DNA from: a virus
Taxonomy: Duplodnaviria > Heunggongvirae > Uroviricota > Caudoviricetes
Reading direction: 5' to 3' (one strand)
DNA: 45,327 nucleotides
IMG/VR virus record: IMGVR_UViG_2737471992_000006
Below are positions 32,968-43,012 of this stretch, piece by piece. A program made the translations under genes and the position numbers. The notes below the pieces were generated by a model, which worked only from the letters and a program-made list of their open reading frames with translations, had not been told where the DNA came from and did not search any database. Within the stretch, counting starts at the first letter, position 1. Every line of letters begins with the position of its first letter.

Positions 32968-33617
32968 GCCGCCATCTCCCTGACCAGTTTTTCCGCCTGC
33001 TGGCGAACCTGCGCCAGAAACGCCTCACCACATGCCTCAAGTTCATCACGCCCGATGTAGCTGATTGCCGGTCCCTTCCAGGTCTTGTCGAAAACAGCAA
33101 TAGCACCAGCGAAGAAAGCGCCTGTCGGCACCTGCTTCTCGTCCTTCGGTATAAACCAGGCAGGCAGTTCAAAACCAATACGCCCGCGAATAAAAGCAAT
33201 ATGATCTGCATCTTCCGGCCACCACACTTCGCTGGTGGCCGCTTTGATCAGGAAAACATAGCGCCCGCCCTTATCACGCATGGCACTGGCATGTTTCATG
33301 ATGTAACGCATGCCGGTGATGTATTGCCCCTCATGCTGACTGGCGCGGCTGTATGGGGGATTACCAAAGGCAGCACCTTTAAGCTCCGCAAGACGTTCTG
33401 ACCAGTCATGCGCCAGCGCGTTATCTTCCGCCGTGTAATACGCGGCACATTTGGCGTTATCACCGTCAGTAAACAGATCCAGAACAAACGGGCCAAACAG
33501 GGTGTTAATTCCCCAGAAAATGTTGTCCGGCGTGCGCCACTGATCGCCCACTTCCTTCAGTTCATGGGCTGGTTTGTTCCGCAGTTCCACCAGCGCCTGG
33601 CAATATTTATTACTCAT
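32964..33617 (-). CDS. phage Dam-type N6-adenine DNA methyltransferase (NPPY)
   Basis: 217 aa from the ATG at 33617; motif AFGNPPYS. Confidence 0.75.
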   Translation of the reverse strand: MSNKYCQALVELRNKPAHELKEVGDQWRTPDNIFWGINTLFGPFVLDLFTDGDNAKCAAYYTAEDNALAHDWSERLAELKGAAFGNPPYSRASQHEGQYITGMRYIMKHASAMRDKGGRYVFLIKAATSEVWWPEDADHIAFIRGRIGFELPAWFIPKDEKQVPTGAFFAGAIAVFDKTWKGPAISYIGRDELEACGEAFLAQVRQQAEKLVREMAA

Positions 33618-34105
33618 TAAGCCCCCACGTAATTCCCTGAGAGATACCACTCTTCACCTGATGCAGCCCGCTTACTGCTTTTCCGTAAACACCGTTCACG
33701 ACGCGCCAGAAAATTGTTTCGTTCTGGCTGGGAGTGGCTTTCACGGAATGCCGCCATCCACACGGTTGCAGCACGACGGTATAAGCCCCTGGACTCCAGT
33801 TCTTCAGCCTGGCGGGTCAGGCACAAAATCACCCGTGGATCGTTAGTGCCGACATAGAAATTGCGCACAGGTCTGGTTTCTCGAACTGGTTGTGGTTCCG
33901 GTTCCTGCGCTCTCTCAGTCAGGCGTGGGAAATGTCTGCGTGTATCTCCTTCACAACGGTGAGCCACACGCCCACTCTGACGTAACTTGCTTGCTGACTG
34001 CAGAACGCGCTGCCGTGAGTAACCTGCAAAAGCATCCGCAATGTCTCCGGAAGTACACCCCGGATGGGCTTCAATGAATTTCTGAACTTCATTCAAAAGA
34101 CTCAT
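33617..34105 (-). CDS. PerC-like transcriptional activator candidate
   Basis: 162 aa; C-terminal LESRGLYRRAATVWMAAF resembles the PerC/Pch motif as I recall it; provisional. Confidence 0.4.
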   Translation of the reverse strand: MSLLNEVQKFIEAHPGCTSGDIADAFAGYSRQRVLQSASKLRQSGRVAHRCEGDTRRHFPRLTERAQEPEPQPVRETRPVRNFYVGTNDPRVILCLTRQAEELESRGLYRRAATVWMAAFRESHSQPERNNFLARRERCLRKSSKRAASGEEWYLSGNYVGA

Positions 34106-34107
34106 GA

Positions 34108-34926
34108 TCACCCCCTGAATCCTGCCGGGATCTGGCTGTAGTCCACGTTGTCGTAACTGGCTTTGAAGTACGGGTCCTCGCGTCTGGCTGCAGATACCGC
34201 AGGAACTTCCCAGGATTCTTCGAAATGACGATCCGGACCAAAGAACGTGACAGCCTGTTTCACAAATTGTGTGCCGCTGTTACCCATCGCAGATACCCAG
34301 CCCGCGTAGCGTTTCACACCTTCCAGCATGGTTTCGGGGTTTACTCCCTCATTCAAACGGGCTTTCCAGGCTTTGAAGGCTGCAGATTTTGAATTGCCAC
34401 CAGCACGTTTGGGATATGCCAGCCATGCCTGCTCAAACTCCGGAGAGTATTCCGGTCGGTTTGAACGAACTCGCACGGACTCATCAACTGATGCACCAAC
34501 AGCTATTGGTTCATTGACTGGTTCTTTGACTGGTTCAAAAGAGTGACTGGTTCTGGGTGAATCTCCTGCACTACCCCCTGGTGCAACTCCTGCACTACCT
34601 GGTGAATTTGCTGCACCAGATAGTGAATTATTTGCACTACCCCCTAGTGAATCTCCTGCACCATCCAGATGAAGGAGATAGATATTACTTGAGTTACCTT
34701 TTTCACCTTTCCGGGTGACTTTTTTTACCAGCCCGGACTCACAGAGGGCCGCAATATGATTCATCACAGAACGTTTGCTAATCTCGCACTGATCAGCGAT
34801 ATGCTGATAGCTGGGCCAGCACTCACCCTGATCGCTGGCATTATCAGCCAGCTTGATCAGAACTAGTTTTCGCAATGGATTACCCACTCGAATTTTCATC
34901 GCTTTCACCATCAGCTCCATACTCAT
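34108..34926 (-). CDS. replication initiator (lambda O-like, iteron-binding) containing the origin
   Basis: 272 aa; winged-helix N-terminus, Gly/Ser/Ala-rich linker encoded by the iterons, C-terminal domain; GGAGGTG Shine-Dalgarno. Confidence 0.75.
   Translation of the reverse strand: MSMELMVKAMKIRVGNPLRKLVLIKLADNASDQGECWPSYQHIADQCEISKRSVMNHIAALCESGLVKKVTRKGEKGNSSNIYLLHLDGAGDSLGGSANNSLSGAANSPGSAGVAPGGSAGDSPRTSHSFEPVKEPVNEPIAVGASVDESVRVRSNRPEYSPEFEQAWLAYPKRAGGNSKSAAFKAWKARLNEGVNPETMLEGVKRYAGWVSAMGNSGTQFVKQAVTFFGPDRHFEESWEVPAVSAARREDPYFKASYDNVDYSQIPAGFRG
34511..34705. repeat. origin of replication: 3x GACTGGTTC and ~5 iterons (CTGCACTACC..TGGTGAAT at ~22-bp spacing) plus AT-rich tract
   Basis: Direct repeats at 34515..34556 and 34567..34672, then an AT-rich segment at 34673..34705, all inside the O-like gene as in ori-lambda. 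Confidence 0.6.
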
Positions 34927-35159
34927 GCTGCACCTCCGAGATGCTTCATGTTTTTTCCGGAGCGAAAGGTTATAAGCGGCATACTGACGCGGTAATTACG
35001 GCCCAGCGGTTCACAAATCACTTTCTGACATTCACGGTCAACCAGGCTAACACGTAGAACATGCCCTGCAGGCGTGGTGTACCACTGCCCAACTGTAGGA
35101 ATTGATGTTTTTTTACGCTGAAGTAAACGGCGAATATTGAGGCTCAACAGATTAAGCAT
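34923..35159 (-). CDS. small basic protein translationally coupled to the replication initiator (cII position)
   Basis: 78 aa; GGAGGG Shine-Dalgarno; its stop overlaps the O-like ATG (ATGA). Confidence 0.5.
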   Translation of the reverse strand: MLNLLSLNIRRLLQRKKTSIPTVGQWYTTPAGHVLRVSLVDRECQKVICEPLGRNYRVSMPLITFRSGKNMKHLGGAA

Positions 35160-35988
35160 GACGATGCCCTCCGCTGATATTCAGGAGACGGTGAATATGA
35201 AAATTAGCCTTATCCGCCAGACGAATACGTTCAGCCTGCAAGTTAAGAAGGGTTTCTACCAAAACCTGATGCGCCTGCGGATCCGAAAGAGTTACCTTGC
35301 GCAGAGCACGTAGTGCAGTTGTTACATAACTGAGTTTATGTAAGTCTTCATCATTCAGACGAGTGAGGGCTGGGACAGTAGCCATGATGGCAGCCTCCTT
35401 GATCGGTGAAATACTTCCATCACCGGAAACGCCAATTTCGCTGGTGGTGAACTGAACGGGGTTGGCGTAACCGGTGATCAAGGAAACCGGCGCATCTTTC
35501 GATGCCCCCGCCCAGCCCACCATAACTTTGATGTGAGCAAATGCGGACGATAAAAAAGACGCTGGCGCGTCATATATCGCCTTGATCAATTCCAGGACGC
35601 CAATCCCGGCACCCGCTTTATAAGGTGCCTGAACAGTGTAACGTCCCGGAATGGCAGAATCAATGTGCTGGTGGTCCTTCACACTCAACAAAATCACGCC
35701 TGAATTTCCACAAAGGACTAAAGCACTCATGCGGGTAGTCTTTGCGAAGATAGATAACGCGCTGTGTTTCTGGCTCCCAACGAATAACATGAACATAAAG
35801 TCCTCTTCTGTCACGAAACCAGCGGTTAAGTTCCTGCACAACTCGCCCCCCACAGTCAGGTAAAGTTCTCTGTGGTTACTTACAGCCAGGTGATTTGGTA
35901 ATCTGCATTCATGCCGTAACAACAGGTGTTCAGCGACGCTGGCCACCAGCTGTTGCGACAAACGGTTATTTGCCGTTAAACTGTTCAT
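35152..35988 (-). CDS. hypothetical 278-aa protein in the early-right operon
   Basis: ATG overlaps the upstream stop (ATGA); no recognisable motif (no Walker A box). Confidence 0.6.
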   Translation of the reverse strand: MNSLTANNRLSQQLVASVAEHLLLRHECRLPNHLAVSNHRELYLTVGGELCRNLTAGFVTEEDFMFMLFVGSQKHSALSIFAKTTRMSALVLCGNSGVILLSVKDHQHIDSAIPGRYTVQAPYKAGAGIGVLELIKAIYDAPASFLSSAFAHIKVMVGWAGASKDAPVSLITGYANPVQFTTSEIGVSGDGSISPIKEAAIMATVPALTRLNDEDLHKLSYVTTALRALRKVTLSDPQAHQVLVETLLNLQAERIRLADKANFHIHRLLNISGGHRHA

Positions 35989-36548
35989 GCGTTAGTTTCT
36001 CCACAGACACAAAACGCCACGACGCCCGGAGCTGCACACTCGCGGGCGTCACTCTTTTCTGGAGCGCAAAAGATTTTGTAGACCAGTGCTGCATGCTCCT
36101 GGAGCTTCGAAATTGACAGATACAACTCATCATTAATTGCTGTCTGCTCGTGTGGCTCCACTACCCCATCTTCGATTGCCGAACGAATCTGCTTTGAGTA
36201 ACTCCCGATCTGTTCGATGACTTCCAGCAGGCGCTGGTTTATATCGGCGTTCTCTACTTCCTCAATTTCAGGAAGCGATACAAACACCCCACCAGCAGAC
36301 TGTGCGACAGCATCCGCAATGTAGTGAGTGCCAGCCGCGCGCTGTAAAATCATTGCCCATCCCAGCGGGAAAATCTGATCGCCATCGGCACGAAGGCGGT
36401 TAAATAATGCGTTCTCTGTTACATCCAGCCACTCAGCAGCTTCAGCGTAACCCCCCGGCAACGCCGCGATAGTTTTTCTGACAGCTTTCACGTACCACTC
36501 AGGCTGTTTTTCTACTTTCCAGTGATGCTTACCCACGGTTAGCCTCAT
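35985..36548 (-). CDS. hypothetical 187-aa protein, first gene after cro (possible CII-like/YdaT-like regulator)
   Basis: Position and operon coupling only; the YdaT assignment is a guess. Start may be the GTG at 36536. Confidence 0.5.
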   Translation of the reverse strand: MRLTVGKHHWKVEKQPEWYVKAVRKTIAALPGGYAEAAEWLDVTENALFNRLRADGDQIFPLGWAMILQRAAGTHYIADAVAQSAGGVFVSLPEIEEVENADINQRLLEVIEQIGSYSKQIRSAIEDGVVEPHEQTAINDELYLSISKLQEHAALVYKIFCAPEKSDARECAAPGVVAFCVCGETNA

Positions 36549-36579
36549 CGTTCTGTGGTTAAAAATTGAAGGTGTTCTG

Positions 36580-36780
36580 TTAATCTTTCGGATAGATATC
36601 CGGTCTTAAGTCAGATTTCGTAATTGCACCTGACGTGCATTGCTCAAGTTTTTTAGCCAGCACAAAACTGGCTTTTTTATAACCATTGAAAACTAGCCGT
36701 AAGTAGCCTGGTGTTGAGCCAACTTTTCCGGCCAACTCGCCCTGCTGTTCTTTGGTTAAAGAGTCCCAATACGCTTTCAT
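36580..36780 (-). CDS. Cro-like small helix-turn-helix repressor
   Basis: 66 aa from the ATG at 36780 (GGAGGT Shine-Dalgarno); divergent from the repressor gene; the 167-aa ORF-track version is an upstream extension through the operator region. Confidence 0.7.
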   Translation of the reverse strand: MKAYWDSLTKEQQGELAGKVGSTPGYLRLVFNGYKKASFVLAKKLEQCTSGAITKSDLRPDIYPKD

Positions 36781-36870
36781 ACAATATGTACCTCCGATAT
36801 ACATATTACATGATTGAGATGAACCTTCAAGGTACTTGTACCCTATCGGTACAAAGGTTTTAATTTCGTT
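36781..36870. promoter_or_regulatory. divergent immunity promoter/operator region
   Basis: 90 bp between the cro-like and repressor genes with GTAC-centred inverted repeats (GGTAC-TT-GTACC, ATGTACC, CGGTAC). Confidence 0.5.
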
Positions 36871-38659: not shown

Positions 38660-39484
38660 ATGTCTCAGAACTTAGACGCAACCGCAATTAATCAAATCCA
38701 TGCCCTTATTTCTGCTCAGGGTGTTAATGAAATTATCAGTAAGATTGGTGCCGATGCTGTGGCATTGCCTGAGAATTTCCGCATTCATGATCTGGAAAAA
38801 TTTAATTTAAATCGCTTCCGTTTCCGTGGTGCGCTTTCCACTGCCAGCATCGATGACTTTACCCGTTATTCTAAAGATCTTGCAGATGAAGGCACCCGCT
38901 GCTTTATCGATGCCGATAATATGCGAGCCGTCAGTGTGCTTAACCTGGGTACTATTGATGAACCAGGTCACGCAGATAACACCGCCACCCTCAAACTGAA
39001 AAAGACAGCACCGTTTTCTGCTCTGTTGTCTGTTAATGGCGAGCGTAACTCCCAGAAGTCACTGGCAGAATGGATTGAAGACTGGGCCGACTACCTTGTG
39101 GGCTTTGATGCTAATGGTGACACCATTCAGGCAACCAAAGCGGCTGCGGCAGTCCGTAAAATCACAATTGAAGCAAACCAGACCGCTGATTTTGAAGACA
39201 ATGACTTCAGCGGCAAACGCTCTCTGATGGAGTCTGTCGAAGCGAAAACCAAAGACATTATGCCAGTGGCATTTGAATTTAAATGCGTTCCGTTTGAAGG
39301 CCTGAAAGAACGTCCGTTTAAATTACGCCTCAGCATTATCACTGGCGATCGTCCTGTACTGGTTCTGCGCATTATTCAGCTGGAAGCGATGCAGGAAGAA
39401 ATGGCTAACGAATTTCGTGATCTGCTTGTTGAGAAATTCAAAGACAGCAAAGTAGAAACCTTTATTGGTACTTTCACCGCCTGA
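38660..39484 (+). CDS. hypothetical 274-aa early protein (YfdQ-like)
   Basis: Intact ORF with GAGGA Shine-Dalgarno; recalled similarity to the uncharacterised CPS-53 protein YfdQ. Confidence 0.7.
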
Positions 39485-40490: not shown

Positions 40491-40981
40491 CTGGACATGC
40501 AGCAATCCTCGACATGTGCTGTGGCAGTCGCATGTTCTGGTTCGATAAGAATGACGACCGGGCGATATTTAGCGATATCAGAAAGGAAGAGCACACATTG
40601 TGTGATGGACGACGCCTGATTATCAGTCCTGACCTGATAGCTGATTTTCGTGCACTACCATTTGCAGACGCATCCTTTTCGATGGTTGTATTCGACCCTC
40701 CGCATCTTGAGCGTGTTGGTGATAACGCTTGGATGGGAAAGAAATATGGACGGCTGAATAAAGATACCTGGCGTGATGATTTACGGCAGGGATTCAAAGA
40801 AGCCTTTCGTGTGTTGTGGCCATACGGCGTTCTGATTTTTAAATGGAATGAAACGCAAATACCTGTTCGCCAGATATTGGCACTGACCGACAGAAAGCCT
40901 GTTATCGGTCAACGAACAGGAAAGGGTGACAAGACCCACTGGATTATTTTTATGAAGGAGGCAACCAGTGAGCGAGATTGA
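40487..40981 (+). CDS. small amino-methyltransferase (motif I DMCCGS, motif IV FDPPH)
   Basis: 164 aa from the GTG at 40487, preceded by AAGGAGG and overlapping the upstream stop (GTGA); the target (DNA or other) cannot be told from sequence. Confidence 0.6.
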   Translation: MTGHAAILDMCCGSRMFWFDKNDDRAIFSDIRKEEHTLCDGRRLIISPDLIADFRALPFADASFSMVVFDPPHLERVGDNAWMGKKYGRLNKDTWRDDLRQGFKEAFRVLWPYGVLIFKWNETQIPVRQILALTDRKPVIGQRTGKGDKTHWIIFMKEATSERD

Positions 40982-41567
40982 TTATCAGGCGCTACGGGAA
41001 CGTTATTCACCTAAGCCAGTACCTGAATGCTCTGTTTGTGGCGAGGAAATGTCAATACAGCGTATATCTGGAGCACATGTCACTTATGCCTGCTCCGGTT
41101 ATGGTGGTGATGGAGATTTCAAAATTGGTCGCACACTTGCCGACGAGCATTATGAAAAATCACGCGTAACAGTAGTTGATGACAGTGACCCTGATGTGAT
41201 TGCACTACTGGACGAACTGGAGGCAGCAAAATTAAAACTCAACGAGCAGCGTGAGTATTACGAAGGTGTTATCTCGGATGGGAGTAAGCGTATTGCTGAA
41301 CTGGAAGCACGGGAAATAAAACCAGCCAAAGGCGAAGTTCTTGTCGTTGTCTCTGGTTTTACTGGTTGCGGGAAAAGCGCCATTGCCGGGGAAATAGAAA
41401 TTGCGATGAAAGCTATTGGTGTGCCGGTTCAATGGACTAATGGCGATGCAGAAAAGCATATGACCGGCGCTGACTGGCTGACAGCGATTGAGATGTACAA
41501 ACCAAATGTGCGCATCGTGGAAGTTAATGTGTCACGCGCCGCAGGCATTCGCATCAAAGGAGAGTGA
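40968..41567 (+). CDS. hypothetical protein with N-terminal CxxC zinc-ribbon-like motif, coiled coil and C-terminal Walker-A-like P-loop
   Basis: 199 aa; GTG start after AAGGAGG; CSVCGEE near the N-terminus; GFTGCGKS near the C-terminus. Confidence 0.6.
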   Translation: MSEIDYQALRERYSPKPVPECSVCGEEMSIQRISGAHVTYACSGYGGDGDFKIGRTLADEHYEKSRVTVVDDSDPDVIALLDELEAAKLKLNEQREYYEGVISDGSKRIAELEAREIKPAKGEVLVVVSGFTGCGKSAIAGEIEIAMKAIGVPVQWTNGDAEKHMTGADWLTAIEMYKPNVRIVEVNVSRAAGIRIKGE

Positions 41568-41762: not shown

Positions 41763-42440
41763 ATGAATACTCTTACCAAAGAATGGTTACAGAACACGAT
41801 TACCGGAATTGAGTCGATAATAGACGATAAATCGTTTGTATGTAGTGAAATAGCATTCGAAATAGGTCAGGTTAACAACATACTTACCGCATTTAAAATT
41901 GCACTGGCATCGCTGGCAGCAAAACCGGTGGTTTACATGTGGGATAGCGAAAGAAAAGATATTGATGCCCCTGGGTATTATCGGACTGAGCATTTAGTGT
42001 TCGCTGAGAGTAGTGTTAAGAAATGGGGAGGACGAGTTGTTCCACTTTACACCGCCCCGCCAGCGACGGTAGTACCGGATGAACGTGCAGCTTTCAATGC
42101 CTGGAACAACGACGAGAACCTACCCATAGCTGGTGTCGGCGCAAAAAACGCTGCCTGGTTAGCTTGGCAAGCCCGCGCTGAGTTGGGCCGCTCGTTAGCC
42201 GTAAACTCTCCGGTAACTCCGGATGGTTGGATAAGCTGTAGTGATCGAATGCCTGAAAAGGGCCAGAACGTGCTTATTTCGGTGAATTTCGATAGCTCTC
42301 TGGTTGAACCGCTAATATGCTCCGCACGCTATACCGGAAGCACCTTTCGGCGCGGAGATGCAACGATTAAGCCGGGTAATGGTATTGAGCAAGCAACTCA
42401 CTGGATGCCGCTACCGGAACCGCCGCAGGAGGTGAAGTGA
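41763..42440 (+). CDS. Ead/Ea22-like protein with C-terminal DUF551-like domain
   Basis: 225 aa; C-terminal ...THWMPLPEPP motif typical of DUF551 as I recall it. Confidence 0.65.
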   Translation: MNTLTKEWLQNTITGIESIIDDKSFVCSEIAFEIGQVNNILTAFKIALASLAAKPVVYMWDSERKDIDAPGYYRTEHLVFAESSVKKWGGRVVPLYTAPPATVVPDERAAFNAWNNDENLPIAGVGAKNAAWLAWQARAELGRSLAVNSPVTPDGWISCSDRMPEKGQNVLISVNFDSSLVEPLICSARYTGSTFRRGDATIKPGNGIEQATHWMPLPEPPQEVK

Positions 42441-43012
42441 TGAACAACTTAATGATCGACCTTGAGACGATGGGGAAAAATAAGGATGCACCGATCGTTT
42501 CCATTGGCGCGGTGTTCTTCACTCCAGAAACCGGAGACATCGGACAAGAATTCTATACGGTGGTTAGCCTGGAAAGTGCTATGGGGCAAGGAGCTACACC
42601 TGACGGCGATACCATCCTGTGGTGGTTGAAACAAAGCCCTGAAGCGCGAGCTGCAATCTGTATTGATGATACTTTGTCGATCAGCGATGCTCTCTCAGAA
42701 CTAAACCATTTCATTAACCGGCACGCAGACAATACGAAATATTTAAAAGTCTGGGGTAACGGGGCCACCTTCGACAACGTAATTTTACGTGGAGCTTATG
42801 AGCGAGCAGGACAAATCTGCCCGTGGGCATACTGGAATGACCACGATGTACGCACGATCGTTACGCTTGGGCGTTCCATCGGATTCGACCCCAAAATGGA
42901 CATGCCTTTCGATGGCGAACGGCACAACGCCCTGGCCGATGCCCGTCATCAGGCAAAATATGTTTCCGCTATCTGGCAGAAATTAATTCCTGCCACCAGC
43001 ACAGAATTATGA
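42440..43012 (+). CDS. DnaQ-like 3'-5' exonuclease (DEDDh)
   Basis: 190 aa; IDLETMG (Asp/Glu motif) near the N-terminus and HNALADA near the C-terminus; GGAGGTG Shine-Dalgarno; ATG overlaps the upstream stop. Confidence 0.75.
   Translation: MNNLMIDLETMGKNKDAPIVSIGAVFFTPETGDIGQEFYTVVSLESAMGQGATPDGDTILWWLKQSPEARAAICIDDTLSISDALSELNHFINRHADNTKYLKVWGNGATFDNVILRGAYERAGQICPWAYWNDHDVRTIVTLGRSIGFDPKMDMPFDGERHNALADARHQAKYVSAIWQKLIPATSTEL

Follow-up and report, generated by a model that had tools for sequence, protein, structure and literature searches.

How can a lambdoid phage bring a replicative helicase to its origin when it encodes an initiator but neither a helicase nor a helicase loader? The question is posed by the early-right replication module of a 45,327-nt sequence assigned to the Caudoviricetes (IMG/VR record IMGVR_UViG_2737471992_000006; this whole stretch is called the window below), where positions 33600-36800 form an 'initiator-only' module, that is, one with a single replication gene that holds the origin. 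Zheng, Casjens, Davidson, Amundsen and Smith (Genome Res 2025) found that 34 of 314 lambdoid phages carry only an O homolog; the replication of this class was termed 'not yet understood', and its members have been the subject of no experimental replication study (PMC12315714). Judged by its sequence, the window module belongs to this 'O-only' lambdoid class and has the same initiator as phage mEp460. An earlier note on this DNA had proposed that the phage either recruits host DnaB/DnaC through a novel protein or encodes a new loader in one of the open reading frames (ORFs) upstream of the initiator. Here, we report that the initiator itself ends in a short tail matching the extreme C-terminus of E. 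coli DnaT (primosomal protein I of PriA-PriB-DnaT restart), that this tail recurs on unrelated phage initiators, and that it is found in modules that encode no helicase. The earlier note had correctly recognised that a loader is missing, but it sought the explanation in the wrong genes.

The initiator gene and its parts are as follows (aa, amino acids).

34108..34926, minus strand: replication initiator gene, 272 aa (phrog_270 'replication initiation protein', E 1.7e-88; SfV orf39 'replication protein')
34672..34926, minus strand: predicted winged-helix origin-binding domain, aa 1-85 (Pfam HTH_36 at aa 17-67, E 1.8e-11; DnaD_N at aa 22-85, E 3.6e-5)
34210..34449, minus strand: helical C-domain core, aa 160-239 (YSPEFEQAW..YPKRAGGNSK..FVKQAVTFFGP..HFEESW)
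34111..34182, minus strand: flexible C-terminal tail REDPYFKASYDNVDYSQIPAGFRG, aa 249-272, ending in IPxGFRG-COOH (predicted local distance difference test score, pLDDT, below about 50)

The protein is 88% identical to Sb42 of ST64B. Its first 140 residues match phrog_8540/391 'replication initiation O-like', the helix-turn-helix match being to HTH_36 and not to Pfam Phage_rep_O, and its C-terminal part (aa ~145-250) matches PHROG families labelled 'DnaD-like helicase loader' and 'primosomal protein'. In the structure model, the C-domain consists of four helical segments predicted with good confidence, and the last ~28 residues are disordered. It is in this disordered end that BLASTP aligned the initiator (SQIPAGFRG) with the end of E. 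coli DnaT (SQIPPGFRG), with 8 of 9 residues identical and both segments at the extreme C-terminus. The match is longer in phage relatives with a shorter tail, where 13 of 19 residues are identical to DnaT aa 161-179 (pairwise E 5e-7). Within DnaT, the motif [KR]RD.N..S[EQ]PD..IP[PR]GFRG is near-invariant in the listed Enterobacteriaceae clusters, which are 71-100% identical overall. At the sequence level, then, the initiator tail corresponds to the last part of the 20-residue DnaT tail, which is flexible and near-invariant, and some database annotations label tail-bearing phage proteins 'primosomal protein I'. The likeness is confined to this end: in the BLASTP comparison, the initiator and DnaT share only the last 9 residues, and the N-terminal oligomerisation/PriB-binding domain of DnaT with its acidic linker was not found. 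Searches of all PDB chains with the 272-aa protein and with a 29-sequence C-domain profile returned nothing meaningful, and DnaT was not among the matches. The idea that the whole C-domain is a DnaT_C domain was dropped because hhalign gave a probability of only 2.7% for the C-domain against a DnaT profile; there was also no Pfam PF17948 match (E<=0.01).

The tail behaves as a portable module. A scan of viral contigs with a back-translated PD..IP.GFRG-stop pattern, which covers only short DnaT-like tails, yielded 120 loci, in every one of which the match ends at a stop codon. The phage hosts among the tail matches are all Enterobacterales. The tail sits on five unrelated C-domain clusters (the window family, lambda-O, the Gifsy-1/Rac YdaU type, a true DnaT_C type and a Phg_2220_C-like type), combined with at least seven N-domain clusters. 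Several named phages illustrate this mosaic. The 'O protein family' initiator of SfII joins a lambda-O C-domain to the same 24-residue tail as in the window and is followed by PerC, not P; Gifsy-1 O and POCJ13 gp16 carry a DnaT-type tail and are followed by a DnaC homolog and a DnaC-like loader (gp17), respectively; Rac YdaU also ends in such a tail; and in Salmonella phage SPN1S (SPN1S_0046), residues 178-271 are 63% identical to DnaT 86-179 (E 2.5e-40).

The SPN1S initiator comprises a complete DnaT C-domain plus tail, with no loader gene downstream. The initiator of Klebsiella phage BUCT711 has an N-domain 92% identical to that of SPN1S, an unrelated C-domain and the same tail, again with no loader downstream, and the pair shows plainly how domains have been shuffled while the tail stayed constant. 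In modules of the Rac/Gifsy type, the tail-bearing initiator is followed directly by a DnaC homolog, an order that mirrors host dnaT-dnaC, whose genes lie 2 nt apart; this parallel in gene order suggests such a phage module, initiator(tail)-DnaC, as the ancestor of the host operon.

We then compared tail type with module content in 261 non-redundant viral-contig loci whose initiator has the C-domain of the window, taking counts over loci with at least 3.5 kb of downstream sequence. All 58 loci with the long IPAGFRG tail, the form found in the window and SfV, have neither loader nor helicase. Among the 64 loci with a short IPxGFRG tail, 59 encode a DnaC homolog only, 5 encode nothing of the kind and none encodes a helicase. 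By comparison, a DnaB-like helicase is present in 68 of 69 loci with an ...NW tail, and a helicase together with an AAA+ loader in all 33 loci with an ...LNF tail. Within this C-domain family, helicases are therefore found in 0/122 IPxGFRG-tailed loci versus 101/102 loci with other tails; a Pfam check of the clusters returned IstB_IS21 (E 1e-16) and DnaB_C (E 2e-76). The independent pattern scan gave, for 87 tail-bearing loci, no DnaB-like or lambda-P-like gene, a DnaC homolog in 51 and nothing in 36. The loaders also differ in kind. Beside IPxGFRG tails in the window family, the loader is homologous to DnaC over its full length, with 47-50% identity to aa 1-241 of E. coli DnaC, the DnaB-binding N-terminus included (39-50% for the DnaC homologs across all pattern-scan loci), whereas for loaders beside other tails the similarity is limited to the AAA+ part (~30%), the N-terminus being a different one. 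Across these loci, the tail goes with host DnaB and a DnaC-type loader, supplied by the host or as a phage copy, and never with a phage-encoded helicase. Since host DnaB is the constant of all tail-bearing modules, it would be the most economical target of the tail, with DnaC or the DnaB-DnaC complex inseparable from it on these data.

In the window C-domain family, the initiators followed by a DnaC/IstB-like loader and a DnaB-like helicase carry one of two further conserved tails of acidic/aromatic character, ...LPVSGFSEQDYGQSDCNW and ...SGLGRMSDDFGESGENLNF. Both are candidate handles for the phage's own helicase-loader pair, and both loosely recall the C-terminal tail of SSB.

The absence of a loader in the window holds in every search made. 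The early-right operon lies on the minus strand and comprises, in order, the cro-like gene, the 187-aa, 278-aa and 78-aa genes, the 272-aa initiator and a 164-aa PerC-like gene. The five genes other than the initiator are listed here.

36580..36783, minus strand: cro-like repressor, 67 aa (Pfam YdaS_toxin/HTH_3, weak; phrog_35 'transcriptional repressor', E 1.8e-15; annotated cro in SfV)
35985..36548, minus strand: YmfL-family / CII(CP76)-like regulator, 187 aa (NCBIfam NF041471, E 4.7e-50; Pfam PF06892, E 8.5e-15; phrog_101 'CII-like', E 5e-73)
35152..35988, minus strand: Ash-family protein, 278 aa (Pfam PF10554, E 1.4e-17, aa 117-210; phrog_3960/821 'transcriptional regulator')
34923..35159, minus strand: 78-aa protein (phrog_1153), a 5-strand SH3/Tudor/KOW-like barrel preceded by an N-terminal helix; gene coupled in translation to both of its neighbours
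33617..34111, minus strand: PerC-family activator-like gene, 164 aa (Pfam PerC, E 7.8e-9; phrog_1324 'transcriptional activator', E 8e-79)

None of the six operon proteins contains a Walker A motif (GxxGxGK[NST]) or shows similarity to lambda P, DnaC or DnaB (E > 0.07); for the upstream ORFs, the earlier note had stated this of the Walker A box, lambda P and DnaC. Translated searches (tblastn) of the whole window with lambda P, DnaB, E. coli DnaC and phage DnaC-like references gave no match; no helicase, primase or loader turned up when the early-left and early-right genes were scanned with PHROG and Pfam; and the DnaC/IstB AAA+ family PF01695 had no Pfam match. The profile search that could have exposed a conventional loader or primase among the ORFs was thus run and came out negative, and with no phage loader or helicase detected by PHROG, Pfam or tblastn, the suggested use of host DnaB/DnaC stands. 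A loader or helicase hidden elsewhere was considered and rejected, the Walker A scan of the whole window having returned, apart from the terminase, nothing but a chance motif in an Ead/Ea22 protein. The latter protein (40968-41567, plus strand; Pfam PF13935) contains the Walker-A-like string GFTGCGKS and has no ATPase family match, so that the string is probably fortuitous.

Candidate origin elements lie within the initiator gene itself, on neither strand in particular.

34557..34661: five iterons with the core GTGMAWYTNYTGCAC (pattern search with <=1 mismatch; Tandem Repeats Finder, TRF)
34515..34553: three exact TGACTGGTTC repeats (copies at 34515, 34527 and 34544; spacing 12 and 17 bp)
34675..34704: least stable AT-rich duplex, a candidate unwinding element (nearest-neighbour -33.9 kcal/mol per 30 bp)

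Allowing at most one mismatch, the iteron core occurs five times in the 45-kb window, at 34557, 34581, 34602, 34623 and 34647 (plus-strand coordinates; spacing 24/21/21/24 bp), and nowhere else. By chance, 0.41 matches per window are expected, and 0 of 100 shuffles reached five; TRF reports the same region (34557-34661) as a 24-bp x 4.6 array. The core is a partial dyad, GTGCA-N5-TGCAC, as would be expected for the site of a dimeric winged-helix binder. The iterons encode a Gly/Ser/Ala/Pro-rich linker (aa ~86-124), and 65 of 73 related type I loci have arrays of period 21-24 at the corresponding place in the initiator gene. With one mismatch allowed, the TGACTGGTTC count is equalled in 11 of 100 shuffles, so the 10-mer alone is not improbable; what is notable is the presence of three exact adjacent copies. 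This stretch is moderately AT-rich (its 30-bp windows fall in the least stable 12-17%) and lies on the opposite side of the iterons from the AT-rich tract. The tract adjoins iteron 5 and contains the least stable 30-bp duplex of 34001-35200, within the least stable 0.85% of the whole window, although its base composition is modest (GC 0.375-0.40 at 34660-34719, ~60% AT). All three elements fall in codons ~75-138 of 272, between the winged-helix domain and the C-domain. The earlier note had described iterons in the linker-coding part of the initiator gene, three short repeats and an AT-rich tract, and all three were recovered here.

Two further features of this region are an imperfect inverted repeat over iterons 2-4 (34581-34637; 24 nt, 79% complementary, 9-nt spacer) and the sequence TGAAGGAGAT at 34670-34679, which is complementary to the ATCTCCTGCA part of iterons 1 and 5. 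Arrays of period 15-50 were detected by TRF inside the initiator genes of 65/73 type I, 59/70 type IIIa and 0/62 type II loci; the origin of Rac-type (type II) modules may lie elsewhere or be of another structure.

We propose that the origin-bound initiator acts as an origin-specific mimic of DnaT that captures host DnaB-DnaC, a model to which we give an even chance and in which the partner is one that we infer. Dimers of the initiator would occupy the five iterons in the manner of lambda O and melt the AT-rich tract beside them; the iteron-bound assembly would display many copies of the DnaT-like tail; the tails would capture host DnaB6-DnaC6, as DnaT is thought to do in the preprimosome; and host DnaC would then load DnaB. 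If the initiator is such a mimic, a phage loader is not needed, and neither, probably, is the separate novel protein that the earlier note had invoked for recruitment, since the initiator itself carries the DnaT-type tail. A broader reading is more tentative and, in our view, slightly more apt to fail than to hold as a whole. In it, IPxGFRG-COOH would be the element by which DnaT, and with it the PriA-PriB-DnaT preprimosome, engages DnaB-DnaC; enterobacterial phages would have repeatedly grafted the tail onto at least five unrelated initiators; initiator-only phages would replicate by DnaT mimicry; the ...SGFSEQDYGQSDCNW and ...SDDFGESGENLNF ends would be equivalent handles for phage DnaB-type helicases; and host dnaT-dnaC would be what remains of a phage module with the order initiator(tail)-DnaC.

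Several points weigh against the DnaT-mimic proposal. The C-domain core is not demonstrably related by sequence to DnaT_C (hhalign 2.7%, no PDB match). No partner of the tail has been demonstrated here or in the literature searched. The authors of the 2026 preprimosome structures favour the N-domain of DnaT as the recruiter of DnaB/DnaC, and the phage initiators lack this domain; in addition, truncation data for DnaT suggest that its C-terminal region has a part in oligomerisation and in cooperative binding of single-stranded DNA (ssDNA). In the PDB, DnaT is present only alone or in the preprimosome, and its sequence in the mature complex stops at residue 154. The origin function of the iterons is argued from analogy with lambda. 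Finally, common descent and block recombination inflate the correlation between tail and module content, and the independent events are far fewer than the loci: the tail and the downstream genes are adjacent, so much of the correlation is inherited. For this reason, it is the mosaic distribution of the tail over five C-domains that provides the independent evidence.

The known partners of DnaT suggest a different use for the tail. DnaT binds PriA, on whose HD2/CTD its C-domain docks, and PriB, which binds the DnaT linker; the tail might accordingly recruit the host preprimosome (PriA and/or PriB), with the phage origin treated as a primosome assembly site of the phiX174 type and host DnaT bringing DnaB-DnaC. 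The recombination habits of these phages fit such a route, for the window contains 23 Chi sites (GCTGGTGG) where 1.9 are expected, the phage class leans on host RecBCD recombination, and recombination D-loops are restarted through PriA-PriB-DnaT. However, this route continues to depend on DnaT, and a tail occupying the PriA site of DnaT would be its competitor. The tail is also missing from the 154-aa DnaT sequence deposited for the mature preprimosome, and therefore nothing places it at the PriA interface. Recruitment of PriA or PriB would also leave unexplained why the tail never accompanies a phage DnaB-type helicase yet does accompany phage DnaC homologs. We consider this explanation unlikely.

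No more probable, in our judgement, is the view that the tail is an element for self-association or ssDNA cooperativity, the functions to which the DnaT truncations point, and that the helical C-domain, taken as DnaD/replisome-organizer-like, recruits the helicase. The tail is carried by five unrelated C-domains, which makes a contact between the tail and its own domain unlikely. Within one C-domain family, the tail is a different one exactly in those phages that bring their own helicase, and this switch points to the tail, rather than the C-domain core, as the partner-specific element.

The chained small proteins deserve separate consideration, given that the earlier note regarded one of them as a possible new loader. 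The start-stop overlaps that it described were confirmed for the genes from 187-aa to 78-aa, namely ATGA between the 187-aa and 278-aa genes and ATGCTTAA (an 8-nt overlap) between the 278-aa and 78-aa genes, but not for the cro-like gene, which is separated from the 187-aa ORF by a 31-nt gap without overlap. The chain continues through ATGA between the 78-aa and 272-aa genes and GTGA at the junction of the 272-aa and 164-aa genes. Two of the ORFs regarded as unknown proved to be recognisable by profile matches, the 187-aa protein as YmfL/CII-like and the 278-aa protein as a member of the Ash family, probably a regulator or of antirepressor type. A loader or adaptor could still be sought in the 78-aa SH3-like protein, the N-terminal ~100 aa of the Ash protein or the N-terminal half of the PerC-like protein. 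Small size and the lack of an ATPase are no bar to being a loader, as DciA and lambda P show, and the 78-aa gene in particular is translationally coupled to the initiator, present in 68/68 related loci and assigned no function by the profile scans. Against this, the 78-aa family also precedes a related initiator in Stx2_EH1846, where the genes after the initiator carry the annotations 'DNA helicase' and 'replication protein' and lie where this family has its DnaC-like and DnaB-like genes; a companion of an initiator that already has a loader and helicase is no loader substitute. Moreover, loader-less SfII has a different 112-aa gene at the 78-aa position, the loader-less, tail-bearing SPN1S and BUCT711 have no gene annotated as a member of the 78-aa family, and the 78-aa fold is a generic barrel. 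The Ash gene, found in 66/68 related loci, is replaced by a Rha protein gene in mEp460, which has the same initiator. These ORFs are thus better described as regulators and a 78-aa companion, and a loader among them seems to us quite improbable. Least probable of all is that DnaA, bound to origin DnaA boxes, brings DnaB-DnaC together with a Rep-like protein as in the iteron plasmids pSC101, RK2, R6K and P1, whose combination of iterons, an AT-rich tract, a single Rep protein and no loader the module resembles: this model lost support with the search for TTWTNCACA, which found none within 14 kb of the iterons; the window as a whole has two (8821 and 19895), a number below the chance expectation.

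The surroundings of the initiator are those of a known prophage type. The cro-like gene opens the early-right operon. The PerC-like gene lies directly 3' of the initiator, in the slot that P occupies in lambda, and follows the initiator in 64/68 related loci as well as in SfII and ST64B; its product has an additional N-terminal ~95 aa (phrog_23071, with a weak MarR-like match). Beyond it are genes for Dam, a protein with a LexA DNA-binding domain, RusA, a KilA-N/Rha-type regulator, an HNH protein and Q. The early-left operon encodes a protein with an Rv2179c-like 3'-5' exoribonuclease domain (42437-43012, plus strand) and a YfdQ/DUF2303 protein (38660-39484, plus strand), and no recombinase of the Red-beta, Erf or RecT type turned up in the scans made of the window. 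The Chi count was reached in 0 of 100 shuffles; 18 of the 23 sites are on the minus strand, clustered at 20.4-36.3 kb (e.g., 20472, 23510, 23978, 24507, 26711 and 36289), and one lies inside the initiator gene (34397-34404).

Over 3.2 kb (33600-36800), the DNA is 98.9% identical to orf35-41 of Shigella phage SfV (U82619/NC_003444), and its identity to phage Ayreon, phage 2H10 and a set of Stx2c-converting phages is 96-97%. One E. coli chromosome contains a 100% match, and parts of the region are present in 3114 of 5426 complete E. coli genomes. On the strength of these matches, we assign the window to the lambdoid prophages of the SfV / ST64B / mEp460 type. The module itself is not new, being SfV orf35-41, with the same arrangement in ST64B sb40-sb45 and mEp460 gp39-44.

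What is new is the tail, which gives a testable lead on how this known and documented class replicates. Our literature search found no description of it as a discrete portable motif, of its spread over unrelated initiators or of its exclusive link to modules without a helicase. About one in ten enterobacterial lambdoid phages is O-only, including SfV, ST64B, Stx2c-converting phages and the RecBCD-dependent LLS, and the 2026 preprimosome structures leave the way in which DnaT brings DnaB-DnaC as an open question. A tail of 7-20 residues common to DnaT and many phage initiators offers one mutable motif for both questions, and also a simple sequence rule for predicting which host replication proteins a prophage depends on. 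The window sequence is ordinary and widespread; its motif links an unexplained class of phage replication to a question of replication restart.

Among known systems, the SfV, ST64B and mEp460/LLS O-only modules are essentially the same as that of the window; the gene order is that of mEp460, except that the window has an Ash-family gene where mEp460 has Rha. With the lambda origin inside O, the window shares a dyad-containing iteron array in the codons of an inter-domain linker, adjoining an AT-rich tract; with lambda O itself, it shares an N-terminal winged-helix domain that would serve origin binding and a place in the early-right operon after cro and cII-like genes. The two differ in that lambda has four 18-bp iterons and the window five of 21-24 bp, and in that the AT-rich tract of the window, with an AT content of no more than about 60%, flanks the iterons on the side that codes for the N-terminus. 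The C-domains are unrelated, lambda O has no DnaT-type tail, and where lambda has P downstream, the window has the PerC-like gene and no P-like sequence. With E. coli DnaT, the initiator shares the ...SQIP(P/A)GFRG-COOH tail, disordered in both proteins, and, by analogy, an expected role upstream of DnaB-DnaC delivery; the N-domain and the three-helix DnaT_C domain are features of DnaT only, and the phage initiator would be targeted by sequence-specific DNA binding and not by PriA/PriB. A chromosomal counterpart is DopC, the HTH_36/DnaT_C chimera described in bacterial chromosomes by Brezellec et al. 2017 (PMC5509034), which likewise combines a lambda-O-like HTH_36 N-domain with a C-terminal DnaT element. 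DopC is a domesticated chromosomal gene with a lambda-P-like partner, DopE, no iterons and a reported DnaT_C domain (2ru8) (PMC5509034), whereas in the window the DnaT match is limited to the tail and there is no P-like partner. The pairs Rac YdaU-YdaV, Gifsy-1 O-DnaC and POCJ13 gp16-gp17 share with the window a DnaT-type tail and the lack of a helicase; they bring their own copy of DnaC, whereas the window module would rely on that of the host.

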